DNA of 63,924 bases, the filler included. It is 6 parts of 6 records of this genome, joined end to end, with 100 filler letters (N's around TTAATTAATTAA, not from the genome) between each part and the next. Parts side by side here need not be neighbours in the genome. Positions count along the whole stretch, not along the records: positions 1 to 6,267 come from SRR20825010_2477; 5 more parts are not named here. One strand, 5' to 3'. The position numbers and the translations under genes were made by a program. Positions 1 to 15,213 of this stretch are shown here, piece after piece. The notes beneath the pieces were generated by a model. That model saw nothing but the letters and a program-made list of their open reading frames with translations. It had not been told where the DNA came from and did not search any database. Each line of letters starts with the position of its first letter. The stretch's first letter is position 1.

Positions 1-1
1 A

Positions 2-223
2 CCTTACGGAACGTGGATATTCCTTTCGGGCGCGGTCTTTGTGGCCGGTGCGCTGGGCATGGAAATGGTCGGCGGCCTCACCTTCGTCGCCTATGGCGAG
101 CGCGGCCTGCCCTATATCCTGAGTTTCGTGACGGAAGAAACGCTGGAAATTTTCGCAATGACGTCTTTTGTCATCGCGTTGATCAGCTATTTACGGCAAA
201 GCTACGGCCTTAAAGTCGGCTGA
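2..223 (+). CDS. Partial (5'-truncated) integral membrane protein, function unknown
   Basis: Open frame from the contig edge reads PYGTWIFLSGAVFVAGALGMEMVGG...EETLEIFAMTSFVIALISYL, with hydrophobic helices. Confidence 0.6.
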   Translation, partial: PYGTWIFLSGAVFVAGALGMEMVGGLTFVAYGERGLPYILSFVTEETLEIFAMTSFVIALISYLRQSYGLKVG

Positions 224-280
224 TGCCGGACCTGCCTGTTGCCTTGCGCCTGTCGCGGGCACACTTTGCCCAGAGCCCAG

Positions 281-949
281 ATGAACACGCCTGAAAAATT
301 CAAGACGGCCGACCCTGTTGCCTTTATCAGGGCCAATACGGCGCTGCACGAGCCGCCGCTCATCCCCGAGGTGAAGCTGTGGCTTGCCTCCGAGATTGTT
401 CCGATCTGGCAGATGACGGAAGAAGAATTGCAGGAAAGCGGATTACCGCCACCTTTCTGGGCCTTTGCATGGGCGGGCGGTCAGGCACTGTCGCGCTATA
501 TTCTCGACAATCCCGAAATCGTGGCAGGCAAGCGGGTGCTGGATTTTGGCTCCGGCTCGGGCCTCATCGCCATTGCCGCCATGAAAGCGGGCGCGGCGAG
601 TGTACTGGCCGCCGATATTGACACGTTCGCGGTCGCGGCGATCCAGCTCAACGCGGAAGTGAACAACGTTTCAGTTCTTGGAACCGCAGATAATCTGGTC
701 GGCGTGGCCAATCAGGGCTGGGATGTGATCCTGATTGGCGACATGTGCTACGAGCGCCCGCTGGCAGAAAGCATAGAAATCTGGGTTCGCGGCTTGGTGG
801 CTGAGGGTGCGACTGCGCTGATCGGCGATCCTGGCCGGACTTATCTGCCCAAGACAGGTTTGGAGAAGCTCGTCTCCTATGCCGTAATGACAACGCGCGA
901 GCTGGAAGACACGGATGTGCGGAACACCAGCGTCTGGAAGATCATCTAG
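281..949 (+). CDS. Class I SAM-dependent protein-lysine methyltransferase, METTL20/ETFBKMT-like
   Basis: PPPFWAFAWAGGQALSRY family motif, SAM motif I VLDFGSGSG, GDMCY and DPGR motifs. ATG at 281 preferred over the upstream TTG. Confidence 0.85.
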   Translation: MNTPEKFKTADPVAFIRANTALHEPPLIPEVKLWLASEIVPIWQMTEEELQESGLPPPFWAFAWAGGQALSRYILDNPEIVAGKRVLDFGSGSGLIAIAAMKAGAASVLAADIDTFAVAAIQLNAEVNNVSVLGTADNLVGVANQGWDVILIGDMCYERPLAESIEIWVRGLVAEGATALIGDPGRTYLPKTGLEKLVSYAVMTTRELEDTDVRNTSVWKII

Positions 950-953
950 AAAG

Positions 954-967
954 TGAACCTATATTCA
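954..967. promoter_or_regulatory. Palindrome TGAA-N6-TTCA upstream of the crotonase gene; possible repressor operator
   Basis: TGAACCTATATTCA in the AT-rich intergenic region. The palindrome is short and could be chance. Confidence 0.25.
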
Positions 968-1091
968 TTCTTATCCGTGCTTTTTTGGAACCTGCCATTG
1001 CGAAAATGAACTTTGCTTCTTGGCCCTATCCGAAGTGAAGATGCGAACCGAAATTCAAAAGCCCACCCATTTGCGACAAGAGAGCTCCTCC

Positions 1092-1880
1092 ATGACCGAC
1101 CATGTGCTTGTGACCATCGAAGACGGCGTCCAGATCGTGACACTGAACCGTGCCGACAAGAAAAACGCGCTGACCGCCGAGATGTACAAGGTGATGGCGG
1201 ACGCGATCGAGATTGCCGACCGCACACCGGAAATCCGCGTGACGCTCTACACTGGCTCCGGCGGCTCCTTCACGGCGGGCAACGATCTGGGCGACTTTGC
1301 CAAGGCGGGCACGACGCCGGTGGATGCAAAGCCGAGCGAGAAACCGCATGTGCAGCGCTTCCTCGAAAATCTGGCAGAAGCCAAGAAGCCGCTGATCGCC
1401 TCGGTCAATGGTCTGGCCGTCGGTGTGGGTGTGACCATGCTGCTGCATTGCGATCTCGTTTATGCGGGCACCAGCGCCACATTCCAGATGCCTTTCGTCA
1501 ATCTGGGTCTGGTGCCGGAAGCAGGCTCGACCTTCCTGCTGCAGCGCCAGATCGGCATCCAGAAAGCAGCCGATCTGTTTCTGACGGGCAAGAAGATCGG
1601 TGCGGAAAAAGCCGAAGCCATTGGGCTGGTGGCGGATGTCTTCCCCGACAATGAATTGCCCAGCGCCGCGCTTGCCGCCGCCAAGGCACTGGCGGCCAAA
1701 GCCCCCAATGCTGTACGCGCGACAAAGGCACTGCTGAAAGACAATGACCGCGCCCGTGTGGGCGAGGCTCGCGAAGCAGAAGGCCGCGTCTTTGCCGCGC
1801 AGCTGCGTTCAGACGAAGTGAAAGAGGCAATCAGCGCCTTCTTTGAAAAGCGCAAGCCGGATTTCTCGAAGTTCGGTTGA
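1092..1880 (+). CDS. Enoyl-CoA hydratase/isomerase (crotonase family, ECI2-like isomerase type)
   Basis: LNRADKKNAL, FTAGNDL oxyanion motif, VNGLAVGVGVTMLLHCD, PFVNLGLVPEAGS, C-terminal AFFEKRKPDF. Confidence 0.9.
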   Translation: MTDHVLVTIEDGVQIVTLNRADKKNALTAEMYKVMADAIEIADRTPEIRVTLYTGSGGSFTAGNDLGDFAKAGTTPVDAKPSEKPHVQRFLENLAEAKKPLIASVNGLAVGVGVTMLLHCDLVYAGTSATFQMPFVNLGLVPEAGSTFLLQRQIGIQKAADLFLTGKKIGAEKAEAIGLVADVFPDNELPSAALAAAKALAAKAPNAVRATKALLKDNDRARVGEAREAEGRVFAAQLRSDEVKEAISAFFEKRKPDFSKFG

Positions 1881-1951
1881 TAGCGGCCCTTGCGGACGGG
1901 GCAGGCGCAGCATTCGTCAATCGCGATGTGCGTGCGGTGCTTTGTGCGCCG

Positions 1952-2356
1952 CTACGCCCGCGCCGCGTGCGGAGACTGCAACAACGGTATAAGCGCAAAA
2001 CCCAACTGCCCCAAAAGCCCGACGAGCCCCGCCGCCTCGCCATAAGACGCTGTGATTTCTGCCGGACTGCGTCCGAAGGCCAGAACTCCGAGCGCCCACT
2101 CTGCCGCCATCAATAAAGCGAAAGCACTTGCACCCATCGCAAGGCGCGCGCCTATACCCTTGCCCACCCGCACCCGTGCCGTGACCGCACTGCAAACGAA
2201 CCATGAAATCGTCAGTATCAATGGCATTTCAAGAAGTACGGCGGGCAATTCGCCTAGCGCGGGGACAAGAAAGAGAACGCGCAACGTGCCGAGCAGGAAT
2301 CCCGCAGCGAAGACAGCAAGAAAGTAGATGAGGGCGGCTTTGAGGACCGTGTTCAT
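1952..2356 (-). CDS. Small 4-TM hypothetical membrane protein
   Basis: 134 aa, hydrophobic (YFLAVFAAGFLLGTLRVLFLVPALGE...AVLLEMP), plausible start. Confidence 0.7.
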   Translation of the reverse strand: MNTVLKAALIYFLAVFAAGFLLGTLRVLFLVPALGELPAVLLEMPLILTISWFVCSAVTARVRVGKGIGARLAMGASAFALLMAAEWALGVLAFGRSPAEITASYGEAAGLVGLLGQLGFALIPLLQSPHAARA

Positions 2357-2529
2357 AGGGACACCTGCAAATTGCGGATTATTGTCGGCAAAGAACAGAA
2401 TCGCAAATTAGGGCCCATCCGGTATTCGTGTCGGGTGCCCTTGCGGGCACATGCAAGAGACACGACATAGACGGGACGAACAATCAAACATGTCCTTATA
2501 AAATAAGGGCTATTCGAGGAAACCCGCCC

Positions 2530-3066
2530 ATGTCGCTCTCCCCAAACCCGCTAGGCATGTATCAGGCCAGCGTGCCGCCGATGCTGCAGATGTTTGCCAG
2601 CATGACCAATCTGCTCGACAAGGCTGTCGCGCATTGCGAGGCCCGCAAAATCGACCCCAACAAATTGCTGACCTATCGCCTTGCCGTGGACATGCATCCG
2701 CTGACCAACCAGATCCAGGCCATCTCGGATCAGGCCAAAGGTTCGATTGCACGTTTGGCCGGCATCGACATTCCCTCCATGCCCGACACTGAAGCAACAA
2801 TGGACGATCTAAAGGCGCGTATTGCCAAGACGGTCGAGTTCATCAAGAGCGTGAAGCCGGAACAGATCGACGGGACGGAAGACAAGGAAATCGTGCTGAA
2901 GCTCGGCCCTGCCGGTCCCAACCAGTTCGAAATGAAATTCACCGGCGCGCAATATCTGATGCATTTCGTGCTGCCGAATTTCTATTTCCACCATGTCACC
3001 GCCTACGACATTCTGCGCCATGCAGGCATACCGGTCGGCAAGCGCGATTTCATGGGAAAGATTTAG
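2530..3066 (+). CDS. DUF1993 family protein (DinB-like four-helix fold)
   Basis: Recognised motifs LLTYRLAVDMHPL..QIQ, ARLAG, PNFYFHHVTAYDILRHAG.PVGKRDF. GAGG RBS before ATG at 2530. Confidence 0.85.
   Translation: MSLSPNPLGMYQASVPPMLQMFASMTNLLDKAVAHCEARKIDPNKLLTYRLAVDMHPLTNQIQAISDQAKGSIARLAGIDIPSMPDTEATMDDLKARIAKTVEFIKSVKPEQIDGTEDKEIVLKLGPAGPNQFEMKFTGAQYLMHFVLPNFYFHHVTAYDILRHAGIPVGKRDFMGKI
2998..3056 (+). repeat. Direct repeat copy 1 (3' end of the DUF1993 gene; attL-like)
   Basis: ACCGCCTACGACATTCTGCGCCATGCAGGCATACCGGTCGGCAAGCGCGATTTCATGGG matches 4042-4107 apart from 4 substitutions and a 7-bp insertion. Confidence 0.9.
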
Positions 3067-4041
3067 CATCTTCTAATCAGCGTAATAAAAAGTGGTAGGC
3101 CTTTAAGTTCGACTGCTTTCTATTACAAACAATGAAAATCAGTAATCCGTTATTCTCTTATTCAACCTCCTCTTGACGGAGGGTGAACAGATGAAGTTTG
3201 ATTTTTGATTGAGGTCACAAACTCTCGCGACGAGCTGAATTTTCAGTTAGCTTCATCCTCCTTTCCCAAAATGACGTAAATGCCGTTTGATTTGGCCTCG
3301 CCTACCTCGTCCGCAGACGCAACAAAAGATGAAAGTAAGACATTTCGTCACTCCCAATGGGCGTTGAATTTGCTGAGAATTATATCCGCCTCTTTGAACA
3401 CAGAAAGAGACTTGATTGCTTGACTCTTAACTATTTCAAAAATTTGCTCTTGAAGTTCTGGATGTGGACGAAATTTTTTCAGCATGAACTGCAAGGCATT
3501 AAGTCTTTCGACCTCATAAACTACTTTCTGAATCTCGAAGCAAATTTTCGTACCGAAAATGTAAAACTCAGGCATTCGCTCTACAATCATATTTGGCAGA
3601 GCAATGATTTTCTCTCGTTGCGCTAGATACTCATAGAAATTTGGAGGGCCTTTCCCGTTGTAGTCCTCAAAGTGTGCAACAAGAGTTATAAGTTCGGCGC
3701 GAGTGTTATCAAGATGCGGCATTAGAGCCGTGTAAAGACTTTTTGCCTTCAGCAATCGCTCACTGCGAATTGCTTTCTTTTCTGTTAGACGCATATAAAC
3801 TGGCACGGCGACGGCTACCAATATAGCTAGTATCGAACCAATCGCCTGCACCCACGCTGCAGATGTATTCGACAGAAGTGAACTGTTAGGTCCAATCAAG
3901 ATTGCGGCGGATACAGACACGCCTGTAAAGACAATTGCACCAATCAGTATAGCATCGTTCCGGTTGCTCATGCCCCCCTCATTTCCGATTCCTATAAGCT
4001 ACATCATGCCTGAAGCGACGGACTGAAAGCAACGCACACAA
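3067..4041. mobile_element. AT-rich ~1 kb islet between duplicated DUF1993 3' ends; probable reduced integrative element or prophage remnant
   Basis: Abrupt compositional shift, bounded by direct repeats of the host gene end. Carries one intact orphan ORF and no integrase. Confidence 0.65.
3348..3971 (-). CDS. Orphan membrane-anchored protein (two N-terminal TM helices plus helical soluble domain)
   Basis: 207 aa, AT-rich codons, GAGGGGGG RBS-like sequence before ATG. TMs AILIGAIVFTGVSVSAAILI and AAWVQAIGSILAILVAVAVPVY. Confidence 0.75.
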   Translation of the reverse strand: MSNRNDAILIGAIVFTGVSVSAAILIGPNSSLLSNTSAAWVQAIGSILAILVAVAVPVYMRLTEKKAIRSERLLKAKSLYTALMPHLDNTRAELITLVAHFEDYNGKGPPNFYEYLAQREKIIALPNMIVERMPEFYIFGTKICFEIQKVVYEVERLNALQFMLKKFRPHPELQEQIFEIVKSQAIKSLSVFKEADIILSKFNAHWE

Positions 4042-4117
4042 ACCGCCTACGACATTCGACATTTTGCGCCATGCAGGCGTGCCGGTCGGCAAGCGTGATT
4101 TCATGGGCTCGCTGTAA
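4042..4117 (+). pseudogene. Displaced 3' fragment of the DUF1993 gene (direct repeat copy 2; attR-like)
   Basis: Encodes TAYDI-[CGACATT duplication]-LRHAGVPVGKRDFMGSL-stop (TAA at 4115-4117). Confidence 0.85.
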
Positions 4118-4128
4118 GCACCAACAAA

Positions 4129-4167
4129 AATGTGTCATGCGCGGAGCAAATCCGCGTGTGACACATT
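4129..4167. terminator. 17-bp stem hairpin; likely bidirectional terminator
   Basis: AATGTGTCATGCGCGGA-GCAAA-TCCGCGTGTGACACATT (two G-U pairs), between the displaced DUF1993 stop and the convergent DUF6101-like gene. Confidence 0.7.
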
Positions 4168-4185
4168 CTAAAATTTCTGGAAAAA

Positions 4186-4785
4186 TCAGTAAGCCGAGGG
4201 CCGTGAACCGGTCATCAGACGGTCGTGCCAGAGGCGCGGGCGACCTGTCATGCCGAATGTCATCGGGCGTCGTGCTGACAGCGGATTGGCACCGGCATGC
4301 GGCTGAGCCGTATCGATGCGGAGCGCGCCGAGGCGACGTTCGGCCATCTGCAATTCGCCTTCGCGATCTTCGAGCAACAGCGGCAGATTGAGCACGCGGC
4401 CCCATGAGCGCCAGCGGGCGGCCACATCTGCACCATCAAGCGAGGCATGCACAGTGACCGAGCGGCGCTCGTCGCGGCGATGGACAAGCTGCACAAGAAT
4501 GACAGGTTTGCCGCCCTTGTGGTCACGCCATGCCACACGCAAAGCCACGCCCTTGAAGGCGCTCATCGGCTCGTCCCAGACAAAGGGGCCGAGGATGGGC
4601 GATGAGTCTGTCACCTTCACGCCGTCCTTGTGCACAACCGCATAGCGGATGAAGCCGAAAATACGGTTCATGGTTTCATTGGCAGGAATTGTCACACGCT
4701 GCGGCAGCATGAAAGGATCGGAATCAAGTTCTCCGATAATCCAGCGCTGACGTTTCAGGTGAGGCTGCTTCTGGGCCATGGCCAT
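4186..4785 (-). CDS. DUF6101-like alphaproteobacterial hypothetical protein
   Basis: PMSAFKGVALRV...LVHR...SVTV...DVAARWRSWGRVLNLPLLL pattern. Start uncertain (ORF is open to 4845). Confidence 0.65.
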   Translation of the reverse strand: MAMAQKQPHLKRQRWIIGELDSDPFMLPQRVTIPANETMNRIFGFIRYAVVHKDGVKVTDSSPILGPFVWDEPMSAFKGVALRVAWRDHKGGKPVILVQLVHRRDERRSVTVHASLDGADVAARWRSWGRVLNLPLLLEDREGELQMAERRLGALRIDTAQPHAGANPLSARRPMTFGMTGRPRLWHDRLMTGSRPSAY

Positions 4786-5007
4786 GATGGTGCTCAACTC
4801 GGTACTGTTGCGAATGCGAAACTGCAATAAGCCGAGGCTAGGCAATCAAGGTTTGCATCGGATTAACGAAATCCCCCGTAATAGGGTTAATGCGGGTCAA
4901 ATTGGCGCGATTCACGCCCGCACAATTGGCTTATGGGCTGAACTGCGGCATTCTCCGCCCGACTTATTCTCCTGCCGCCCCCTCCGCCCCCGTTTCATGA
5001 GGCCCCC

Positions 5008-6267
5008 TTGTCCTATTCCTCCATGCGCGAATTTCTCGACAAGCTCGAAGCCGAAGGCGAATTGCTGCGGGTGAAGGAGCCTGTTTCCTCTGTTCTTGAA
5101 ATGACGGAAATCCAGACACGCCTGCTGGCCGAGCAAGGCCCTGCCGTGCTGTTTGAAAATGTGATCCGCGCCGATGGCACGCCGTCTCCCATGCCGGTGC
5201 TGGTCAATCTCTTTGGCACAGTGGAGCGTGTTGCACTGGGTGTGACCATGGGCGGTGTCGAGAGACGCAATGCCAAGGACATGCGCGAAGTGGGCGAGAT
5301 GCTCGCCTTCCTGCGCCAGCCCGAACCGCCGGGCGGCTTTCGCGAAGCTTTTTCCATGCTGCCGTTGCTCAAGACGGTGATGAACATGAAGCCGAAAACG
5401 GTTTCGTCCTCTGCCGCGCCCGTGCAAGAAGTTGTGTTGACGGGCGACGACATCGACCTCAATGCGCTGCCGATCCAGACCTGCTGGCCGGACGAACCCG
5501 CACCGCTCATCACATGGCCGCTTGTCGTGACCAAAGGTCCGTCCGGCTCGCGCGAGGATGATTTCAATCTCGGCATTTATCGCATGCAGGTGCTTGGCAA
5601 GAACAAAACCATCATGCGCTGGCTCGCGCATCGCGGTGGTGCGCAGCATCATCAGCGCTGGAAGGGCGAGAAGCGCGAACCGCTGCCAGTCGCTTGCGTG
5701 ATCGGTGCCGACCCCGGAACCATTCTCGCCGCTGTGACGCCTGTGCCGGACACGCTGTCGGAATACCAGTTCGGCGGATTGCTGCGCGGCGAGAAGGTGG
5801 AACTGGTGGATTGCAAAACAGTGCCGCTGAAAGTGCCGGCCCAAGCCGAGATCGTGATCGAAGGGCATGTCTCGCTCGACGACTATGCCGATGAAGGCCC
5901 TTATGGCGACCACACGGGCTATTACAATTCGGTCGAGAAGTTCCCCGTCTTCACGGTCAGCGCCATCACCATGCGCCGGAACCCGATCTATCTGTCCACC
6001 TTCACAGGCCGTCCGCCGGATGAACCTTCTGTTCTGGGCGAGGCGCTGAACGAGGTTTTCATTCCCCTGCTACAACAGCAGTTTCCCGAGATCATCGACT
6101 TCTGGTTGCCGCCGGAAGGCTGCTCCTATCGCATCGCCGTTGTGTCGATGAAGAAAGCCTACCCCGGCCATGCCAAGCGCGTGATGATGGGCTGCTGGTC
6201 GTTCCTGCGCCAGTTCATGTACACGAAATGGCTGATCGTGGTGGATGACGACATCAACGCGCGCGAC
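5008..6267 (+). CDS. ubiD: UbiD family prFMN-dependent decarboxylase, 3'-truncated at contig end
   Basis: [56 protein letters not shown]. Confidence 0.95.
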
Positions 6268-6367
6268 NNNNNNNNNNNNNNNNNNNNNNNNNNNNNNNNN
6301 NNNNNNNNNNNTTAATTAATTAANNNNNNNNNNNNNNNNNNNNNNNNNNNNNNNNNNNNNNNNNNNN
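6268..6367. other. Artificial contig linker
   Basis: 44 N + TTAATTAATTAA (stop codons in all six frames) + 44 N; identical at all five joins. Confidence 0.98.
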
Positions 6368-6539
6368 CATGTGGGACGTTTCTACTTTGCAGACCGGATG
6401 ACGTTTCAACTTGGTTGCAACAGCGTTTGTAGCCGCAAAGTCGACCTGCCCGGATGGCATGACCGCCCCGGCGCCCTGCCGCCACCTCTGCGGGCTCTGT
6501 CACGGTATGGGTCTTGACCGGCGGCGCGCGGAGCGGATG

Positions 6540-7508
6540 TCAGCCCTGACACCGCTCCAGCAGCATGTAATCCAGCGCAAAGTAATCGCGGATGAAATCC
6601 TCGATGTCGGGGGTCAGCATGACGTCGTTAGGCAGGTTGGCGTATTTGTCCAACTGCTTGGGCGGCGTGTCGGCCAGCTTTGCGTCCACTGTCTTTTTGT
6701 TGCGCGGGGCCACGTTGCGCATCCCTAGCCGCACCTCCTGCAGATCCTCCGGGCAGCGATCCAGCACAAAGCGTTCAAAGGCGTCGATGTTGTCGATGCG
6801 GAACAGGTGGTCCCAGCGCAAGGTTTCCAGATAGCGCGACTGCGGTGCCCAATGCGGGTCCATCGCGTCGCGCGGGGCGAGGTTGATGTAGTGGCAGAAC
6901 TGCCGAAAGGTGATGCCCTGTTCGATCTGCTCTTCTGTGATCTCTTCCTCGCTTAGCAGGAAACGGTAGACCGGGGTGGTGTGATGCAGCACCGAAGGCG
7001 TGCGGCGGTTGCGCACGAACTTGTCCCAGTAGCAGCTGATCAGCCGGTCGATCGGATCGCGCAGGATCGCCACCCGCGCCCAGTCCGGGTCGCGCAGGAT
7101 CTCGTTGAACTGCCGTTCGGAATGGTGGCGCGCCTGCAGCCGGATCTTGCCGCCATCCAGCAGCGTGTGCACCGGCTGGTCGGCCTTGTGGCCACACAGC
7201 CGCAGCGCCCAGTCCTTGACCGAGGTATTGGCCACCTTGGCGATCGGGCAAAACAGCATCCGCGCCGGTTTCACCACCAGAATGGATCCGTCCCACTGGC
7301 CGCGCCGGTGGGTCGCCAGCACCGGGCCTTTTTGCCAGTACTCGCGTGAGTTCACCATGTTGTTTTCCAACCGCCCCAGGGGCAGCTTGCGGTCGATCAG
7401 CGCGTTGATGGTGTCCAGATGCGCGCCCCGGCCAAGGTAGAACTGATAGGTCTCGCGGATGAGGGTCTTGTCGACGGGCGCCTTGGGGTCCAGGTCGATG
7501 CGGTCCAT
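6540..7508 (-). CDS. Sulfotransferase family 2 protein (carbohydrate sulfotransferase-like)
   Basis: 5'-PSB motif FCPIAKVANTSVK, 3'-PB motif LRDPIDRLISCY, DPHWAPQ, C-terminal YFALDY. Confidence 0.85.
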   Translation of the reverse strand: MDRIDLDPKAPVDKTLIRETYQFYLGRGAHLDTINALIDRKLPLGRLENNMVNSREYWQKGPVLATHRRGQWDGSILVVKPARMLFCPIAKVANTSVKDWALRLCGHKADQPVHTLLDGGKIRLQARHHSERQFNEILRDPDWARVAILRDPIDRLISCYWDKFVRNRRTPSVLHHTTPVYRFLLSEEEITEEQIEQGITFRQFCHYINLAPRDAMDPHWAPQSRYLETLRWDHLFRIDNIDAFERFVLDRCPEDLQEVRLGMRNVAPRNKKTVDAKLADTPPKQLDKYANLPNDVMLTPDIEDFIRDYFALDYMLLERCQG

Positions 7509-7518
7509 GTCGGGTCTC

Positions 7519-8688
7519 CTAGAGTCGGGCGGCAGGGATCAGGCGGGCGTAGGCCGGGGCCAGATCGGCCAGCGTTGCGTCCCATGTGTACCCGGCGACG
7601 TCCTCTGCCACGCGGGTGCCGGTGAGCTGTCCGGCAAAAAGAGCGCGCACATGGGCGCGGAATTCGGTTTCGGTCTCGGCCACATGAACACCGCCCAGCG
7701 ACATCGCCTCTTCAAAGCCGCGAAAGGCCGGGCGCATGGCGATCACCGGTTTGAGGCTCAACAGCGCCTCGGCGGTTTTCAGGTTGGTGCCGCCGCCGGA
7801 TTTGATCGGCAGGCAGATGCCCTTGGCATGGGTCAACAGCGCCTGCAGCACATCCTCTTCGACGCGGCCGGTGATCTGCACCAGATGGTCGTTGAGCTTG
7901 CGAAAATGGCGAAAGCGCGGGTCGGCGCGCAGCAGGTCGCCGACGCCGCCGACCACCGCCAGCCGCCCGTCGGGCGGGATGCAGCCGGGAATGCGGCCGA
8001 TCACGTCCCAGTACCCCTCGGCATTGGGACCATGGCCGCTGCCCGCCAGCATGAGGTAATCCTCGGCGATGGGGCGCGGCGCGGCGGTGTCCTGCGCCGG
8101 GGGCCAGCAGCCATTGGGCGCCACCACGACGGGCGCGCCCTGCCCCGGCGCGCGCCAGCGGTCCAGCACCTGCGCATCCGCCGCGCTGACCGCGATCACC
8201 ATGTCGGCGCGCCGGGTGGCCGCCTGTTCCAGCGCGTCGGTCTCATCGCGAAAGCGAGCGGGGATCAGCACGCTCTCGATGTTCTGCGAGCCGTAGACCA
8301 CCGCCGGGCGCGCGGCCTCTGGCAGGCCGTCCAGCAGCGCCTCCAGCAGCGGTAGCAGCCAGGGCTGTTCGAAATGCAGCGCGTCGGGGCGGATCTGGTC
8401 CAGCCGCTGGCGCGCGGCATCAAAGGCGGGCACGCCGGGGTGCAGCATCCGGTGCATGTGCAGGTCTTCGCGCAGCCCGGCGCGGGCAATGTCGCCGTGC
8501 ATCTCACCCGGCAGCGCGGTCAGCGCCTCATCGGCGGTATGCTGCGGGTAATGCGGACCAAAGAAAAACGGCATCGCCGTGACCTCATGGCCCGCGCCGC
8601 GCAACACCCGGGTGATGGCGTCAAGCCGTCTCTGCCCGCCGTGGAGCGGGTGGCTGACGGGATAGGTCGAAAGCGTGACGATCTTCAC
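7519..8688 (-). CDS. GT4-type glycosyltransferase
   Basis: N-terminal PLHGGQRR, SQNIES, C-terminal PIKSGGGTNLKTAEAL and YTWD. GTG at 8688 preferred because the longer start crosses a hairpin. Confidence 0.8.
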   Translation of the reverse strand: MKIVTLSTYPVSHPLHGGQRRLDAITRVLRGAGHEVTAMPFFFGPHYPQHTADEALTALPGEMHGDIARAGLREDLHMHRMLHPGVPAFDAARQRLDQIRPDALHFEQPWLLPLLEALLDGLPEAARPAVVYGSQNIESVLIPARFRDETDALEQAATRRADMVIAVSAADAQVLDRWRAPGQGAPVVVAPNGCWPPAQDTAAPRPIAEDYLMLAGSGHGPNAEGYWDVIGRIPGCIPPDGRLAVVGGVGDLLRADPRFRHFRKLNDHLVQITGRVEEDVLQALLTHAKGICLPIKSGGGTNLKTAEALLSLKPVIAMRPAFRGFEEAMSLGGVHVAETETEFRAHVRALFAGQLTGTRVAEDVAGYTWDATLADLAPAYARLIPAARL

Positions 8689-8780
8689 TGTAGGCAGTAC
8701 TCTTTGCGCAACTCGGCGGTGTATCGCCCTGATCGGCGGCGGAATGCAATGTGCAAACTGTTCGGTCCGCAGACCGCCGC

Positions 8781-8819
8781 CCATGCCCGCCCCCTCGGAT
8801 GAGGATGGGGCGGGCATGG
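8781..8819. terminator. GC-rich 13-bp inverted repeat just downstream of the Hint gene
   Basis: CCATGCCCGCCCC-N13-GGGGCGGGCATGG. No clear U-tract, so it may be a REP-like or mRNA-stability hairpin. Confidence 0.5.
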
Positions 8820-8829
8820 CGCGCGTTTG

Positions 8830-10062
8830 TCAGGCGCTTTGCGCCAGATCGCCCCCGGAGCATTTATCGGTGCTGTCCTCGGCAATCCCCAGCCGTGCCC
8901 GGATGGCCGCCGGCAGCAACCGCCGCGAGGAAATCCTCGGGCGGTCCATTTCGGGGATGAGGCGCTCATAGCCATACAGGTCGAGATAGTCCTGATGGTT
9001 GTCGAAACAGGCCCGCCCCGCCGCATCCATAAAGGTCTCAGCCGCTGCCCCATTGGCAAGGATGACGTCATGCGCCGTGGTCTCGATGTGATAGACGGTG
9101 AACCCGGCGGGAATATCCGCATCCGCCACCCAGTCGATTGTGCTGCCGTTCACCAGCGCAGAGGCATTGATCACCAGCCCGTCGACAATCATGCCATGGT
9201 CCGCTGTGACAATCAGATCCGTATGATTGCCCAAGGCACCGGCGGTAATGCGCACCGGCGCGCGGCGCGCGGCGATCCCGTGCGAGGCGTCGATTGTCTG
9301 ACGGGCCAGCCATAGCACCGTGGTGTCCCCGCCCTCTGCCGTCAGCACCCTGTCGCCCGCGCACAGCGTTTCAATGGCGCGCTCTCCGGTCGGGGTGGCG
9401 ATCATCGTGCCCGCCGCGAAACAGTTGATATTGGCGTCCTGGGTCGTATAGGTCGTTGTCCCGATGGTCGGATTGGTGTGGTCCACGGCGTCATCCGTTG
9501 ACACCCAGAACGCCGGATTGCTGCCCTGCGTCGTGATATCCGTGCCGTTGAACATTGCGTTGTCCGTCAGGCCGCCCACATGTTCGGCAATCGGGCTGAG
9601 TGTCGAATTTGCGAGCAGGAAACTGTCAAGCTGTGTCGTCGACAGGCCGGTGACATCAAGGTTGTTGTTCCATGCCGACCCGCTGCTGCTGGAATTGACG
9701 ATCGCGGCCAGAACCTGCCCGCCCTGCGCGGCGATGATGTTGTCGTTGTCGGTAATGCTCCACCCGTTTCCGGACACTGCGCTGGTGGACCCGCCGGAGG
9801 GGTCACTGGCCAGGATAATAGTGTTCGGAACTATGCTGCTTTCGACGATCGTGACACGATCAAACGCGCTTAACCCGGCCGCCCCGACGGTAAAGGTAAA
9901 AGACGAATTGCCAACGGTGGCGGCGCTTTCGGGGCCGTGAAATGTGATGACCTCCCCGGCGGCAATCGCGGTTGTGGCCACAAAGGAAAAGCTTTCGGCG
10001 CCATCCCCGCTCAGATCCGTCAGGTTTGCGGTAAAGTAGATATCGCCGACTGAAATGGCCAT
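8830..10062 (-). CDS. Hint-domain protein (Hint_2 / bacterial intein-like type B) with an extracellular-type N-terminal domain
   Basis: NIN|CFAAGTMIATPTGERAIETL (Cys214, codon 9421-9423), LIVTADHGM, YHIETTAHDVILANGAAAETF. The N-terminal 213 aa are Ser/Thr/Gly/Asn-rich. Confidence 0.9.
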   Translation of the reverse strand: MAISVGDIYFTANLTDLSGDGAESFSFVATTAIAAGEVITFHGPESAATVGNSSFTFTVGAAGLSAFDRVTIVESSIVPNTIILASDPSGGSTSAVSGNGWSITDNDNIIAAQGGQVLAAIVNSSSSGSAWNNNLDVTGLSTTQLDSFLLANSTLSPIAEHVGGLTDNAMFNGTDITTQGSNPAFWVSTDDAVDHTNPTIGTTTYTTQDANINCFAAGTMIATPTGERAIETLCAGDRVLTAEGGDTTVLWLARQTIDASHGIAARRAPVRITAGALGNHTDLIVTADHGMIVDGLVINASALVNGSTIDWVADADIPAGFTVYHIETTAHDVILANGAAAETFMDAAGRACFDNHQDYLDLYGYERLIPEMDRPRISSRRLLPAAIRARLGIAEDSTDKCSGGDLAQSA

Positions 10063-10197
10063 GGGACGTCCTTTGTCAAAATCTGATTGAAACTGCTTGC
10101 GCGCTCGGGGGCGAGGCTGTCAGATTATCGTGAAAAATCAAGCCGATTTCAGGAAAACCGCACCAAAAAAGACCGCCATGGCAGGGTTTATCCGGCC

Positions 10198-11694
10198 TCA
10201 GCCGACACGCTGCACGGGCACCGCGTCCTGAAACGCCTCGAAATCCGCGATCAGGTTTTGGCGGAAATCCTGCCAGCGGTAGCCGCCAAACGCCTCTGCC
10301 CGGTCCAGCGCCTCGGCATAGGCGTCGTTGTCGCCCATCAGCGCCAAAGCCCGCGCCGCCCATGCCTCGCCGTCCAGCAACGGCAGGCAATCCGCAGCCC
10401 CTTGGGCCGCCTCGACGATCGAGGGGGCGTCGGAACACAGGCAGGGTTTGCCGTGGTTCAGGCTTTCGACCACCGGCAGGCCCCAGCCCTCATAGTGGGA
10501 GGGGTACAGGGTAAAGCGGCAGTTGTCGTAGAGCACGCCAAGCGCCTCGTCGTCGACATCGGTCAGGATGCGGATGGCCTCGTGCGGCAGGCCCACATCC
10601 TCGGCCAGCATCTCGACGAAGGGGCCCATGCTCCACCCCGGCTGGCCGACAAAGATCAGCGGCAGCACCTTGTCCGGATGCCGCTGGTGCAGCTCGCGCC
10701 AGAGACGATAGGCGAAATCATGGTTCTTGCGCGGCTCCAGCGTGCCGACCATCAGCACATAGCCGCCCGCGTCCAGATCATGCCGGGCCAGCGTGGCGCG
10801 GGTGATGTCCGCATCTGCGGGCGCGGTGCTGTCGGCCCCCAGCAGGACCGGCGTCACCCAGCGGTCCTCCAGCGGCGGATAGCCGTGGTCGGCCACATGG
10901 GCCAGCAGGTCCTGACGGGTGGTGTCGGAGATGGTCCAGACCTGATCGACCCCCCAGAGCATCCAGTGCAGCGCCAGCGGAAAGGTTTCCTTGGTGGTGG
11001 GTTCGGTCAAGTGCCGCCAGAGCACCGGGATCAGGTCATAGATCAGGTAATGCACCGTCCAGCCGTGGTCCTTGCGGGCGTGGTAGGCGTATTCATAGCG
11101 GCTGTCTGACCAGAAGCCGCCGACCGACAGGTATTGCGTCACCTGCGCCGGATCGATGGCGTTTTCGGGGGCAAAGCGGTCGGGGGCCTGTGCATCCAGC
11201 TGGCCGTGGTGCAGCTGGTGGTTGACCAGATCGGTGCGCGACAGCACCGGGGCCAATTTCGGGGCGATCCGCTGCGCCATGCCCAGCCAGCGGCGCAGGC
11301 TGGAATATTCCTCAAGGCTGACGCGTGACAGCGCCTGCGCCAGCGCCGCGTCGCGGCGCAATTCGGTGATGGGGTCCGCGCCGGGAAAGCGGCGCACCGC
11401 CTGCCGGATATCGCGGGCCAGCCGAAAGCGGCGCATGTGCCGCCGCAGACGTGAGGGTGACATCGCGGCCCGGTCACGGGTCGGCACCACCCAGCGGCGC
11501 TCTGCCAAAATCGCGTCGATCTCTTCGGGAGGCACACGGTAATACCCCTCCAGCACCGGGTTGTAGATGCCAAAGGTCACTGCCTCGCCGTGCTGCGCGC
11601 GGAAGGCGCGGATCACCTCTTGCTCGACCCGCAGAAGGCCCATCGCCTTCCAGTGGCGGAAAGTGTAGCTGGTGGTGATATCGAGAAGGATCAT
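10198..11694 (-). CDS. GT4 glycosyltransferase (LPS/EPS mannosyltransferase-like)
   Basis: IYDLIP, VGTLEPRKNH, YPSHYEGWGLPVVESL. Start MILLDIT at 11694. Confidence 0.9.
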   Translation of the reverse strand: MILLDITTSYTFRHWKAMGLLRVEQEVIRAFRAQHGEAVTFGIYNPVLEGYYRVPPEEIDAILAERRWVVPTRDRAAMSPSRLRRHMRRFRLARDIRQAVRRFPGADPITELRRDAALAQALSRVSLEEYSSLRRWLGMAQRIAPKLAPVLSRTDLVNHQLHHGQLDAQAPDRFAPENAIDPAQVTQYLSVGGFWSDSRYEYAYHARKDHGWTVHYLIYDLIPVLWRHLTEPTTKETFPLALHWMLWGVDQVWTISDTTRQDLLAHVADHGYPPLEDRWVTPVLLGADSTAPADADITRATLARHDLDAGGYVLMVGTLEPRKNHDFAYRLWRELHQRHPDKVLPLIFVGQPGWSMGPFVEMLAEDVGLPHEAIRILTDVDDEALGVLYDNCRFTLYPSHYEGWGLPVVESLNHGKPCLCSDAPSIVEAAQGAADCLPLLDGEAWAARALALMGDNDAYAEALDRAEAFGGYRWQDFRQNLIADFEAFQDAVPVQRVG

Positions 11695-11764
11695 GTCACG
11701 GTCCGGGTTGCAGTCTGAGAGTTGGCGGAGTTCCGGCAAAATCCGGGGCCCCTGTCGGGCACGC

Positions 11765-12541
11765 TCAGCGCCAGAGGGCCTCAATCTGGGCGGCGCGTTC
11801 GACCGGCACCAGAAACCAGTCCCAGATCCCGCGATCGCATTCCGTCAGCCAGGCCTCGGGCGTGGTCAGAGGATAGCCGAACAGGTCAAAAACAGCATAG
11901 CCCGCGCTGTCGGCAAACTGCCAAAGATCCATCGCCTGATGGCCGTAGGGCGCATAGCCGGGCGCGCCGTATTCCACCGACAGGATCGGCCGGGCACGGG
12001 CCAGCGTGTCGCGCGCGCCGTCCAGCACGTCCAGCTCGGCGCCCTCGACATCGATCTTGATGTAATGGGGGTCGGGCAAGCCCTGTGCGGTCACCATGTC
12101 ATCCAGCCGGTTCACCATCACCGTGATCTGGCGCACCTTCGCCAGTTCGGGATGGTTGAACTGTCGTTCGATCAGGCCGCTTTCCTCCGGCGTGCCGGTG
12201 GCGAAGGCAAAGCTTGTCTTGCCGCTCTGGTTGGACAGCGCGGTCTCATGGATCGTGAAATTGCGATGCTGCGCGGCCAGCGAGCGCAGGCGTTGCGCCA
12301 TCTGGGGGATCGGCTCAAACCCGACGACCTGCCCGCCGGGGCCGACAAGTTCCAGAAAGGGCGTCGTGTGCCGACCGGCGTGACAGCCGATGTCGTAGAC
12401 GCATTGACCGGGCGCGATGACGCGGCGGTACATAGCTTCGAGAATGGCCTCGTAGTGCGGTATCAACGGGGAGAGCCGGTTGATCCGCGCCAGAAATTCA
12501 ATGCGGGAGGCCTGCTCGGCCGGACTTGACTGACTGCTCAT
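11765..12541 (-). CDS. FkbM family methyltransferase
   Basis: YDIGCHAG, VVGFEP, IKIDVEGAELDVLDGA. Confidence 0.9.
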   Translation of the reverse strand: MSSQSSPAEQASRIEFLARINRLSPLIPHYEAILEAMYRRVIAPGQCVYDIGCHAGRHTTPFLELVGPGGQVVGFEPIPQMAQRLRSLAAQHRNFTIHETALSNQSGKTSFAFATGTPEESGLIERQFNHPELAKVRQITVMVNRLDDMVTAQGLPDPHYIKIDVEGAELDVLDGARDTLARARPILSVEYGAPGYAPYGHQAMDLWQFADSAGYAVFDLFGYPLTTPEAWLTECDRGIWDWFLVPVERAAQIEALWR

Positions 12542-12699
12542 GGACCGAGCTTTAGAGCAAGCCCCCAGCCGTGCCAAGAGATCACCTCCCGTGGGGCCAG
12601 AGTAGGCGGCCAGAGGGCTGAGCCAGTGTGGTCAGGGCGCGCGTTCTGTGCCATGACACCGTGATGCCGCGCCGCTCGATTGGATGAAGACAAGACAGC

Positions 12700-13881
12700 A
12701 TGACAGAGCACAGCCAAGGCGCCCCGGTGCGGGCCATCCTGCATGTGGGGGCGCCGAAATGCGGCAGTTCCGCCCTGCAACGGGCGCTGAGCGCACAGCC
12801 AGAGCTGCGCGGCGCGGACGGGCGGCGGCATGTCTACATGGCGGGTCGCGTGACCGAGGACGGTCTGGTGCCGGTGACGGGCCGGCGGTTGGCGGCGATG
12901 ATGCGGCATTCGGTGCATGGCTATCTGTCGTGGCCCAATGTCACCCGGCAGGACAATCAGCCCGCCTATTGGGCGCAGGTCGGCGCGGGCGTCGCGGCGC
13001 AGACGCGCGCGGGCCGGGTGCCGATCCTGTCCAGCGAAGGCTGGATCGCCCATGCGGATCAGGCCCCGGCGCTGGCGGCGGCGGCCGGGCTGGAGACGCT
13101 GGATGCCATCGTCTTTGTGCGCCCGCCGCTGGACTGGATCAACGCCGCCTATTGGCAGTGGGGCATCTGGCACACCGGGTTTTTTCACAACCGTCAGGTC
13201 GAACGCTGGCTGGAACGGGCGCGCTATGACGTGGGGCCGCATGTGGCGGCCTGGGCCCGGGCGCCCAACGTGCGGCTGGCGGTGGACAGCGCGCGGGCCG
13301 ACGTGGTGGCGGGCTTTGCCGCCCGCTACGGCCTGCCGCTACAGGCGGGCGATCAGGTCAACAGCGCCCCGCCCCCGGCGCTGACCGGGTTTTTCCTGCG
13401 CAACCGCCGCTTTCGCCCCACCCCGCACGACAGTGCGGCGGAATTTGTGGTGCAGCGCTGGTGCCAGTTTGCGCCCTCGGACAAGCTCTGGGCCTTTTTG
13501 CCGCGCTTTGCGCAAGAGGTCTGGCCGCGCCTGCAGGACGACGTGGCCCGGATGATGGAGGCGCTGCCGCCCGAGACCGCCGAGCGGCTGCTGGCGGAAC
13601 CGGGCTGGACCTCGTTGGATCCCTATTGGGCGCGAATGAAGGCGGGGCCGACGCGGCTGGACGCCCCCGAGGCGCTGGCGGACCTGTATGACGGCATCGC
13701 CAAGGGCGCGCGCGCGGCTGGGGCCGGATCTGGGGCGGGCGATGTTTCGCGCGCGAAACCCGCCGCCTCTGCCCCGGTCGAGGACTGGGATGCGGCAATC
13801 GCCGTGGTACTGGACCGGCTGCTGGAGGCCGATCTGCGCTGGCGCAGACGCGGGGCGATGCGGCGGATGATCGGGGTATAA
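12700..13881 (+). CDS. P-loop sulfotransferase-like protein
   Basis: ILHVGAPKCGSSALQ PAPS-binding-like loop, ILSSEG, VFVRPPLDWINAAYWQW. Confidence 0.7.
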   Translation: MTEHSQGAPVRAILHVGAPKCGSSALQRALSAQPELRGADGRRHVYMAGRVTEDGLVPVTGRRLAAMMRHSVHGYLSWPNVTRQDNQPAYWAQVGAGVAAQTRAGRVPILSSEGWIAHADQAPALAAAAGLETLDAIVFVRPPLDWINAAYWQWGIWHTGFFHNRQVERWLERARYDVGPHVAAWARAPNVRLAVDSARADVVAGFAARYGLPLQAGDQVNSAPPPALTGFFLRNRRFRPTPHDSAAEFVVQRWCQFAPSDKLWAFLPRFAQEVWPRLQDDVARMMEALPPETAERLLAEPGWTSLDPYWARMKAGPTRLDAPEALADLYDGIAKGARAAGAGSGAGDVSRAKPAASAPVEDWDAAIAVVLDRLLEADLRWRRRGAMRRMIGV

Positions 13882-13888
13882 GCGCCCG

Positions 13889-14905
13889 CTAGAACAGGAC
13901 ATCGTCGCTGGTCAGGGTGATGGCGCTGTCGCCGGGATTGTCGATCACCAATGTGTCGGGGCCTGTCCCCAGCACCAGCCGCCCGCCCGCCGCCACGCTG
14001 ATCGAATGGCCCGGCACCATCAGCGCCGCGCGCAGCGCAAACGCCGCGCCGGTGAGGTCGATCAGATCCACCCCGTCCTCAAAATCGGCGATGCGGTCCT
14101 GACCCCGGGTGAAGACAAAGACATCCGCCCCCGCGCCACCAATCAGCAGATCGTCGCCCACCCCGCCTTGCAGGGTGTCATGGCCGCTGTGGCCGGACAG
14201 TGTGTCGTCCCCCGCCCCGCCGCGCAACAGATCGTGTCCGGCCCCGCCCGAGGCGGCATCGTTGCCGTCTTCGCCCAGCAGCGTGTCATTACCCGCCTCT
14301 CCGGCCATCCAGTCGTGGCCCGTGCCGCCCACCATCCAGTCGTTGCCCGCGCCCCCGACCAGCGTGTCAGCGCCCGCCTCGCCGCGCAGCCAGTCGTCAC
14401 CATCACCGCCCGCCAGCGTGTCATTGCCATCCCCGGCAAACAGCGTGTCGCTGTCCTGCGCGCCGCGCAGCCAGTCATCGCCCGCGCCGCCGGTCAGCAG
14501 ATCATCCCCGGTGCCGCCGTCCAGCATGTCGTCGCCCTCCTCACCGGCCATGGTATCGTCGCCGGTGGTACCGATCAGGGTGTCGCCCCCCGATCCGCCG
14601 CGCAGGTCGTCATCGTCAGAGCCCCCCACCAACAGGTCGCGCCCCGGCCCGCCCAGCAGCGCGTCCTCCCCGTCGTCGCCGCGCAGGGTGTCATCGCCGT
14701 CGCCACCCAGCAGCCAGTCCTTGCCGGGGCCGCCGATCAGCCGGTCATCGCCCGCGTCGCCTGCCAGCGTGTCATTGCCGGCCTCGCCGCGCAGCGTGTC
14801 GTTGCCCGCCCGCCCCGAGGCCCGGTCATGCCCGGCCATGAGCGCGATCAGCCGGGCCAGCGGGCCATCGGTCAGATCGTCGTCAAACGGTGTCGGTCGT
14901 GCCAT
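13889..14905 (-). CDS. RTX (hemolysin-type Ca-binding) repeat protein
   Basis: 26 consecutive GGxGxDxLx-type nonapeptides, then GADVFVF...DRIADFEDGVDLIDL and a T1SS-type end (LTSDDVLF). Confidence 0.9.
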   Translation of the reverse strand: MARPTPFDDDLTDGPLARLIALMAGHDRASGRAGNDTLRGEAGNDTLAGDAGDDRLIGGPGKDWLLGGDGDDTLRGDDGEDALLGGPGRDLLVGGSDDDDLRGGSGGDTLIGTTGDDTMAGEEGDDMLDGGTGDDLLTGGAGDDWLRGAQDSDTLFAGDGNDTLAGGDGDDWLRGEAGADTLVGGAGNDWMVGGTGHDWMAGEAGNDTLLGEDGNDAASGGAGHDLLRGGAGDDTLSGHSGHDTLQGGVGDDLLIGGAGADVFVFTRGQDRIADFEDGVDLIDLTGAAFALRAALMVPGHSISVAAGGRLVLGTGPDTLVIDNPGDSAITLTSDDVLF

Positions 14906-15125
14906 CGGTTCACCCCGTCCTTGCGTGTCGGCCCCCGCCCCACCGGGGCCGAATCGGCCCCGCGCCCCGTCCGTGGCGCGGCCGACAGCCCCTCTGTGGA
15001 TTTACCCCGAAGCGGGCCGTGGGACGCAGAGGAATTGGAAACATTGGTTAAAACCGTTCGAACCCCGCAAAATCACGGCCTTTCGGGGGGCTGGCTGCCT
15101 GTCAGCCCCTCCGATCCGGCAAATG

Positions 15126-15164
15126 TTCACGGTTTGTTAAGCGGGACACGCGAGGTTGTTAACC
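15126..15164. promoter_or_regulatory. CtrA-like sites between divergent RTX genes
   Basis: TTCA-N7-TTAA at 15126-15140, TTAACC at 15159-15164, GGTTAA at 15046-15051, all in otherwise GC-rich DNA. Confidence 0.4.
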
Positions 15165-15213
15165 AAGATGAAAGGGGCGGCCCCCTGTGGCCCGGTCCCG
15201 GGGGACACCGCCT

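Follow-up and report, generated by a model that had tools for sequence, protein, structure and literature searches.

A base-resolved insertion with a replacement gene end in a DUF1993 gene of a marine Parvibaculum-like bacterium

We analyzed a DNA stretch of 63,924 nucleotides, filler included, hereafter called the window. Its first piece carries a gene of the DUF1993 family whose 3'-end bears a genuine insertion scar with base-level resolution. The inserted segment of 1,051 bp (the insert) supplies a replacement end that completes the DUF1993 protein, whereas the native gene end lies displaced downstream together with a strong hairpin. The single gene carried by the insert, in the following called the cargo gene, encodes a membrane-anchored protein of an unnamed family. 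Scans of public contigs placed the locus in marine Parvibaculum-like bacteria. Judged from assembled contigs, both the empty and the occupied state of the site are present among close relatives. An insertion into the DUF1993 3'-end that brings a new end and displaces the old one had been proposed in a sequence-only reading of the same stretch, and three empty sites (in X1, L078, and X2) now bear this proposal out.

Insertion scar in the DUF1993 3'-end

The final ~20 DUF1993 codons are present twice (2998-3056 and 4042-4107) as a direct repeat around an A+T-rich insert, just as the sequence-only reading had it. A repeat search found a 16-nt block ACCGCCTACGACATTC with 100% identity (2998-3013 and 4042-4057) and a 51-nt block with 92% identity (3006-3056 and 4057-4107), the four mismatches of which lie at 3013, 3028, 3030, and 3045. 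By our own calculation, a match of 47 out of 51 letters within 2 kb is expected by chance about 1e-24 times. The right copy carries the unit CGACATT in tandem (4050-4056 and 4057-4063), a detail missing from the sequence-only reading, which puts the two repeat blocks 7 nt out of register. Because of this extra 7-nt unit the orphan tail copy is frameshifted. The in-frame copy completes a DUF1993 protein of 178 aa with the C-terminus ...GIPVGKRDFMGKI, covering the whole Pfam model, and the orphan copy reads ...GVPVGKRDFMGSL (...FMGSL*) with its stop codon at 4115-4117. The insert has a G+C content of 43.8% compared to 54-60% in the flanks, and the G+C content at third codon positions is 0.42 in the cargo gene versus 0.65-0.75 in host genes.

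The extent of the insert follows from a 6,413-nt contig of the public run X1, which comes from another study. This contig joins position 3005 directly to 4057, with 7 letters fitting either side, and hence the insert measures 1,051 bp. Compared to the window it shows 21 differences in 378 letters and then 11 in 444, running gap-free through the same hairpin region. The predicted empty site, with ...FMGSL* directly before the same hairpin, was thereby found. L078, a marine metagenome scaffold, has a compact arrangement of an enoyl-CoA hydratase (ECH) gene, DUF1993, DUF6101, and UbiD. Its DUF1993 protein is 97% identical to that of the window, its flanks share 91-94% DNA identity, and its DUF1993 gene ends with ...GVPVGKRDFMGSL*, 91 nt before the DUF6101 stop. 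A contig from a marine metagenome, X2, joins 3056 to 4190 via 105 other letters, which is the L078 arrangement.

Over 2461-3056 the window and L078 share 94% DNA identity. The left repeat copy and its upstream sequence show only 2 differences from L078 across 2909-3012, followed by differences at 3013, 3028, and 3030, and the two sequences have nothing in common beyond 3056. At the sites equivalent to these three positions and in the last codons, the right copy has the L078 sequence. Thus, the relatives match the orphan copy at the diagnostic bases, in agreement with the earlier assignment of host-like character to this copy and not to the in-frame one. By this comparison the orphan copy is the native DUF1993 end, and foreign sequence in the in-frame copy begins at base 3013. 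The occupied site contains three CGACATT units (3006-3012, 4050-4056, and 4057-4063), the empty site a single one. Read from the two copies, the recombination joint must lie within the 15-nt block ACCGCCTACGACATT at 2998-3012.

An independent contig supports both junctions. In X9, which probably represents the source sample, one 3,284-nt contig with a depth of 10 spans 2600-4500 with 0 differences, so that a mis-assembly, which had been named as a possible refutation, was not found at contig level. A k-mer mis-join between the two copies is also unlikely, since they have no common identical run longer than 16 nt. The comparison to public runs was based on assembled contigs of four runs, not raw reads, placed on window positions 2600-4500. 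The runs X4 to X8 covered small shares of this stretch only (4088-4393 in the case of X4), and parts not covered yield no conclusion.

The strong hairpin noticed earlier behind the orphan copy was substantiated by its predicted fold, with -32.5 kcal/mol, a z-score of -6.2, and 0 out of 200 shuffled sequences folding as well. Read on the minus strand, the hairpin is followed by TTTTTGTTGG, from which we conclude that it probably terminates DUF6101 transcription too. A promoter and terminator scan of 2900-4300 reported no terminator and one promoter-like site, no more than in shuffled sequences. All features of the locus are compiled in Table 1.

Table 1. Coordinates of genes and sequence features at the DUF1993 locus (window positions)
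Feature	Position	Strand	Remarks
PrmA-like methyltransferase gene	239-949		
Enoyl-CoA hydratase (ECH) gene	1020-1880		
134-aa membrane open reading frame (ORF)	1952-2356	minus	
DUF1993 gene, 178 aa, intact and chimeric	2530-3066	plus	Pfam PF09351, E 6e-59, model positions 1-161 of 161
15-nt block ACCGCCTACGACATT, common to both repeat copies	2998-3012	plus	X1 joint placed at 3005/4057, 7 letters ambiguous
Insert, 1,051 bp	3006-4056 (equivalently 3013-4063)	unstranded	skipped exactly by the X1 contig; absent from L078 and X2
Foreign replacement tail ...GIPVGKRDFMGKI*	3013-3066	plus	C3013, A3028, and A3030 unlike orphan copy, L078, L001, and L047
Decayed terminator region, homologous to the L008 stretch just after the DUF1993 stop	3067-3130	plus	
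Decayed copy of a hairpin-rich dispersed repeat of Parvibaculum-type genomes	3173-3290	plus	
Cargo gene: membrane-anchored all-helical protein, unnamed family, 207 aa	3348-3971	minus	ORF call
Upstream region of the cargo gene, as far as the right junction (...CACACAA|ACCGCC)	3972-4041	minus	
Element-side partial tail ACCGCCTACGACATT plus extra CGACATT unit	4042-4063	plus	
Displaced native DUF1993 end ...GVPVGKRDFMGSL*	4057-4117	plus	93% identity to the tail in L078; directly continues the gene body in X1
Native hairpin between convergent DUF1993 and DUF6101	4129-4167	unstranded	17-nt arms
DUF6101 gene, conserved right flank	4186-4845	minus	Pfam PF19596, E 1e-14; protein 97.7% identical to L078
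UbiD gene	from 5008		

Left arm, cargo gene, and the surrounding gap

The left part of the insert was traced to the chromosome of another lineage. This lineage is represented by L008, a Parvibaculum metagenome-assembled genome (MAG) which carries at the same locus a DUF1993 gene of a second allele type, 67% identical to that of the window. Among all collected loci, the tail ending GKI* is common to the insert and L008 only, and L008 was also the only match in a pattern search of genome contigs. The two tails are 85% identical. About 45 nt following the DUF1993 stop in the window align to the L008 terminator region with a z-score of 10.1 (0 out of 500 shuffled sequences as good), and among 7 targets this alignment was significant for L008 only. 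The predicted fold of this block is weak in the window (-13.6 kcal/mol, z -1.3) compared to its L008 counterpart (-31.8 kcal/mol, z -6.7).

Further downstream, 3173-3290 align to the L008 intergenic region with a z-score of 27.5, whereas 9 other intergenic regions reached z-scores of at most 1.5. The L008 sequence (6600-6793) belongs to a dispersed repeat of about 150-190 bp with the ends GAGGGAGGGT...ACCCTCCCTC. At least 10 further copies with 76-88% identity are present in the genome of L008 itself (G043), and parts of 50-60 nt were found in 33 of the 73 Parvibaculum-type MAGs (the family genomes), which were reached through another Parvibaculum MAG, L001, whose DUF1993 is 86% identical to the window gene. 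The L008 copy folds with -73.7 kcal/mol (z -4.6), the window copy only with a z-score of -1.0. The repeat is without an Rfam family, and an Rfam search of 2000-5200 gave only a sub-threshold hit to Ysr283 (18 bits versus a gathering score of 58). It looks like a miniature inverted-repeat transposable element (MITE) or a repetitive extragenic palindrome (REP) type element of the Parvibaculaceae.

At 50 positions the arm has A or T where L008 has G or C, and the reverse applies to 20 positions. With a G+C content of 41% the arm also differs from all sampled family loci (56-71%). Going by these alignments, the 280 bp at the left of the insert represent, as a single block, the sequence downstream of DUF1993 in another lineage, with divergence and a shift towards A+T. 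The shift suggests a long stay outside the chromosomal background of the family. Because the tail and the 280 bp are homologous to a native chromosomal flank of another lineage, what might be taken for the arm of a phage attachment site appears to be captured host DNA. Hence, the arm is no evidence for a dedicated element family targeting DUF1993.

The protein encoded by the cargo gene has no match in Pfam or NCBIfam, and 35 family members did not match Pfam either. A HMMER scan of 1.8 billion representatives returned 88 proteins at E<1e-3, most of them about 200 aa long and the best with 35% identity, and a word-based homologue search returned 2 proteins. An alignment with 34 relatives revealed the common motif AAWVQAxGSIxAIxVAIAVP inside a membrane helix. 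The AlphaFold2 model derived from this family alignment is all-helical with a mean predicted local distance difference test (pLDDT) score of 89, and comprises a helix at the N-terminus, another helix that continues into one of 70 residues, and a helical bundle. A Foldseek search of the PDB with this model gave no match at E<=1e-3, only generic helical bundles with a best E-value of 0.15, and a structure search of the Atlas returned unnamed clusters only. No promoter-like site was scored in the region between the cargo gene and the right junction.

Hints to the biological context of the cargo came from 17 loci related to its family in viral or proviral contigs, where 91 of the 166 neighboring ORFs were scanned against Pfam. 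A tyrosine integrase was located within 4 kb of the cargo relative in 5 of these loci (L121, L126, L128, L130, and L135), and a C5 DNA methylase was found nearby in 6 of the 17. Others contained a terminase (L124), tail sheath and fibre genes (L125), or SSB together with HNH (L123). The best viral match, in L121, shares 32% identity over 139 residues and lies 1.5 kb from an AlpA-plus-integrase pair. Weak matches were obtained to the '2TM effector' of PADLOC (E 0.023) and to phrog_33632 of PHROGs, the function of which is unknown (E 0.0016). We regard the cargo as a probable prophage-type accessory membrane protein and as a candidate exclusion or defence gene.

The gap between DUF1993 and DUF6101 is variable beyond the window. 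DUF6101 is present in 67 of the 73 family genomes, and in 12 out of 30 loci, taken with 1.5 kb on each side, DUF1993 is convergent to it, with gaps of 8 to 944 nt. The gap harbors an FkbM methyltransferase gene in G042 and a PAS/HWE histidine kinase gene in G090. In G068 it holds an A+T-richer cassette (L042 2408-3187) encoding a 115-aa ORF and a 142-aa PIN-domain protein (Pfam E 1e-7), which look like a toxin-antitoxin pair. Thus, on comparison of these genomes the gap is a cargo hotspot, which the sequence-only reading had offered as one of two possibilities.

DUF1993 itself is also subject to variation. In 3 of 7 widened loci it is missing between ECH and DUF6101, and in one of these intervals (G089) a methyltransferase-like ORF and a DUF1330 gene take its place. 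Two of the three genomes without DUF1993 at the locus have a DUF1993 tail elsewhere. Where the gene is present, allele types with 82-97% and with 61-67% protein identity to the window occur at the same locus, and the ECH and UbiD flanks are 82-97% identical across genomes with diverged allele types. Since two diverged alleles and the absence of the gene are found amid similar flanks, DUF1993 seemingly behaves as part of the variable region.

The locus is situated on the first piece of the window (1-6269). The window consists of several contigs joined end to end, with a run of N letters and TTAATTAATTAA in the middle of this run at 6270-6367. Positions after 6269 thus belong to separate contigs, and UbiD is cut at 6269. 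DNA and protein searches did not detect the locus in G001 and its 40 relatives (0 out of 41), and window positions 6400-16400 were also without a match in this set.

Two further observations were made at and near the locus. Between ECH and DUF1993, the window contains a second strain-specific insertion (1893-2460) with the 134-aa membrane ORF and its surroundings, where L078 has 17 nt instead. It is flanked by the 10-nt direct repeat GCCCTTGCGG (1886-1895 and about 2437-2446), and the empty site contains GCCCTTGTGTG once. The 134-aa ORF is present in L080 with 79% protein identity and had no match in Pfam, NCBIfam, or PHROGs. A few kb from the locus, ordinary terC RNA elements (Rfam RF03067, 62-64 bits) were identified in L001 (11591-11648) and L008 (10174-10231), upstream of the gene for a TerC-like membrane protein.

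Origin of the insert

We give an even chance to the explanation that the insert derives from a phage-like integrative element and is a defective or miniature form of it, with an attachment arm of captured host DNA, that recombined into the DUF1993 tail. In this scenario, an ancestral phage-like element would have resided in a host of the L008 type, within the DUF1993 tail. Aberrant excision, as in the formation of lambda-bio derivatives, would have captured the host tail, the terminator, and the dispersed repeat from this different Parvibaculum lineage. The captured arm would then have drifted towards A+T, and the integrase would have disappeared during the capture or through a deletion afterwards. 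The outcome would be a small circle of DNA, derived from a phage-like or integrative element, that carries a single accessory gene for a membrane protein together with a DUF1993 tail copy.

Such a circle could recombine Campbell-fashion with the last 18 DUF1993 codons by a crossover inside the 15-nt block. On the left side, the host gene body would run into the element tail (...GKI*), so that DUF1993 stays whole and keeps its length. On the right side, the partial tail of the element would abut the displaced native tail (...GSL*) and the hairpin. Integration would require either a recombinase provided in trans or host recombination on 15-59 nt of homology. The right insert end consists of 15 nt of DUF1993 tail with a sharp start at ACCGCC. 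Since tail sequence is thus found at both ends, the incoming DNA presumably was circular or had tail repeats at its borders. Such a geometry corresponds to that of integrative elements whose attachment site restores the target gene. Aberrant excision of a phage-like element fits because of the captured flank in the arm, its A+T drift, and the prophage-leaning cargo family. Aberrant prophage excision is the classic route to transducing derivatives.

The extra CGACATT unit can be read in two ways. It could be a footprint of a 7-bp staggered cut or of repair, but it could equally be a duplication already contained in the incoming tail fragment. In the latter case, a crossover in the second unit would generate exactly the two observed products, and this is the only register keeping DUF1993 in frame.

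In a farther-reaching and doubtful form of this explanation, the DUF1993 3'-end would be the attachment site of undescribed temperate phage-like elements of marine Parvibaculaceae, and the unit a naturally fixed 'transducing' derivative. If true, the transducing-derivative route would be a mechanism seeding integrase-free cargo hotspots at ordinary gene ends.

A number of results weigh against an origin from a phage-like element, and several of them also concern claims of the sequence-only reading. That reading had suggested the decay of an integrase-bearing element to a single gene. However, neither the insert nor the 6.3-kb contig part contained an integrase, whole or fragmentary, in an ORF and Pfam scan, and arm and cargo account for almost all of the 1,051 bp. 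The repeat and insert, including a 30-nt tail pattern in the viral contigs, were without a match in viral contigs, phages, and plasmids, so that the expected integrase-linked copy did not turn up in these collections. The insert is a single instance. The tail pattern occurs in 15 of the 73 family genomes, each time once and without a second orphan tail, and a self-search of 28 DUF1993 loci found a second tail in 0 of the 20 that extend 1 kb or more downstream. There was no tail duplication in the loci L001 to L047, and the window holds the insert only once. In 9 more distant taxa, not a single integrase was detected among the 42 ORFs that follow DUF1993. With a left arm that reads as captured host DNA, these counts leave the suggested undescribed family of DUF1993-targeting elements without support, and this locus alone does not establish a new element family. 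The expectation of occupied sites elsewhere held with respect to varied cargo only, as the loci with other cargo in the gap show no duplicated tail and no adjacent integrase.

The remaining counterarguments concern the joint, the donor, and the cargo. The extra CGACATT is unlike the product of clean site-specific recombination, and inspection by eye around this unit gave no convincing symmetric inverted core-type sites of the kind that a tyrosine recombinase would use. A donor search with the insert DNA in the 73 family genomes resulted in one weak match of 51 nt. In nine aligned viral ORFs, the match to the cargo profile is confined to a transmembrane motif of 30 columns (hhalign probability 98.7%). 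Five cargo relatives in genome contigs have mixed surroundings, for the most part not of phage type (25 of 40 ORFs scanned), one of them adjoining Abi_alpha, SRAP, and a UmuC fragment, and the single cargo protein used as query found no locus in genome or metagenome contigs.

The main alternative, possible though less likely, is an exchange of chromosomal DNA without any integrase. DNA of another Parvibaculaceae lineage, with the cargo already residing at the DUF1993/DUF6101 hotspot, would have entered by transformation, gene-transfer agents, or vesicles. It would have been joined by homology-facilitated illegitimate recombination or by a RecA-dependent or short-homology single crossover with a looped-out circle. 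The native chromosomal type of the left arm argues for this alternative, as do the lack of DUF1993 in some of the widened loci and the general hotspot character of the gap, which in 4 genomes contains unrelated cargo without mobility genes. It also accommodates the failure to find an integrase in the insert, in the contig part, and in the downstream ORFs of the 9 other taxa. The same logic has been proposed for displaced 3'-ends in loci of type VI secretion system (T6SS) effectors and Rhs proteins (PMC5361080).

The fine structure of the insert fits such an exchange less well. The foreign bases begin only at 3013 and the 100 nt upstream are nearly identical to L078 (2 differences), and hence a long homologous anchor is lacking. 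The right joint is not a microhomology joint but comprises 15 nt of tail and the extra 7 nt, which would require a donor with two tail copies. Moreover, the G+C content of the arm lies below that of every sampled family locus, and the cargo relatives lean towards prophages.

Insertion of a non-autonomous element by a transposase-type staggered cut, leaving a 7-bp target-site duplication, is very unlikely. Relative to the empty site, CGACATT is indeed present on both sides of 3013-4056, but this extra unit may equally have pre-existed as a duplication in the incoming tail copy. The insert ends have no terminal inverted repeats, no transposase was found, and there are no multiple copies in the window or in the 73 family genomes. 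In addition, a continuous DUF1993 tail is restored when the two ends of the insert are joined, an outcome not accounted for by transposition.

The metagenome-type assembly, the composition of the window from a string of contigs, and the two allele types of the clade might suggest that two co-occurring strains were assembled into a chimera, or that a tandem DUF1993 paralogue decayed. Both possibilities are hardly credible in view of the difference-free X9 contig across both junctions, the short identical runs between the copies, the lack of any relative with two DUF1993 genes at the locus (a check named in advance by the sequence-only reading), and the orthology of both gene body and orphan tail to the single L078 gene.

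The value of the locus lies in its legibility: the junction can be read to the base, both states are found in relatives, and the arm is traceable to the chromosome of another lineage. This makes it a tractable case for the question of whether defective phage-like elements or host recombination seed integrase-free cargo hotspots. It also flags an unnamed family of membrane proteins with a confidently predicted structure and links to prophages.

Comparison with known systems

Prophages and integrative elements that insert into gene 3'-ends and carry a replacement end are known, such as e14 and phage 21 in icd and the dusA-, guaA-, and prfC-specific islands. The tRNA and transfer-messenger RNA (tmRNA) islands and tycheposons are of the same type (bioRxiv 10.1101/2020.12.28.424599). 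The insert resembles them in the direct repeat of the target 3'-end at its flanks, the A+T-rich cargo, the incoming copy that restores the gene, the displacement of the native end downstream, and the precise empty site in relatives. In contrast to these elements, it has no recombinase gene, measures only 1 kb, contains one gene, and is a single instance. Its arm extends 280 bp past the gene end and is homologous to the chromosome of another lineage, the right junction has an extra 7-nt unit, and DUF1993 is not a described target: of the three papers with 'DUF1993' in their full text, none concerns integration judging by title or abstract.

Modules without their own recombinase that use one in trans are known as integron cassettes, integrative mobile elements exploiting Xer (IMEX) or dif modules, and cis-mobilizable elements (CIMEs). 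Like these, the insert is a unit of one gene plus a recombination site that does not encode a recombinase itself. Unlike these, it has no attC- or dif-like site, array, recurrence, or identified partner recombinase.

In Rhs, contact-dependent inhibition (CDI), and T6SS effector loci, the displacement of 3'-ends as orphan tips has been attributed to homology-facilitated illegitimate recombination (PMC5361080). Here as there, a new 3'-end and an adjacent gene push the old end downstream as an orphan, and an integrase is not involved. However, DUF1993 is no polymorphic toxin, and both tails encode nearly the same peptide. Furthermore, a long upstream donor tract is lacking, and the right joint is tail homology instead of microhomology.

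Specialised-transducing derivatives of the lambda-bio and lambda-gal type are formed by aberrant prophage excision. The insert differs from them in the lack of a phage structural or packaging context and in a size far below that of a phage genome, and therefore a further deletion or another vehicle would have to be assumed. On the other hand, it would share with them the transport of host DNA from beside the attachment site and the loss of phage genes of the opposite end, including the integrase. Also in common with these derivatives, re-integration would be possible via the captured homology or with the aid of a helper.

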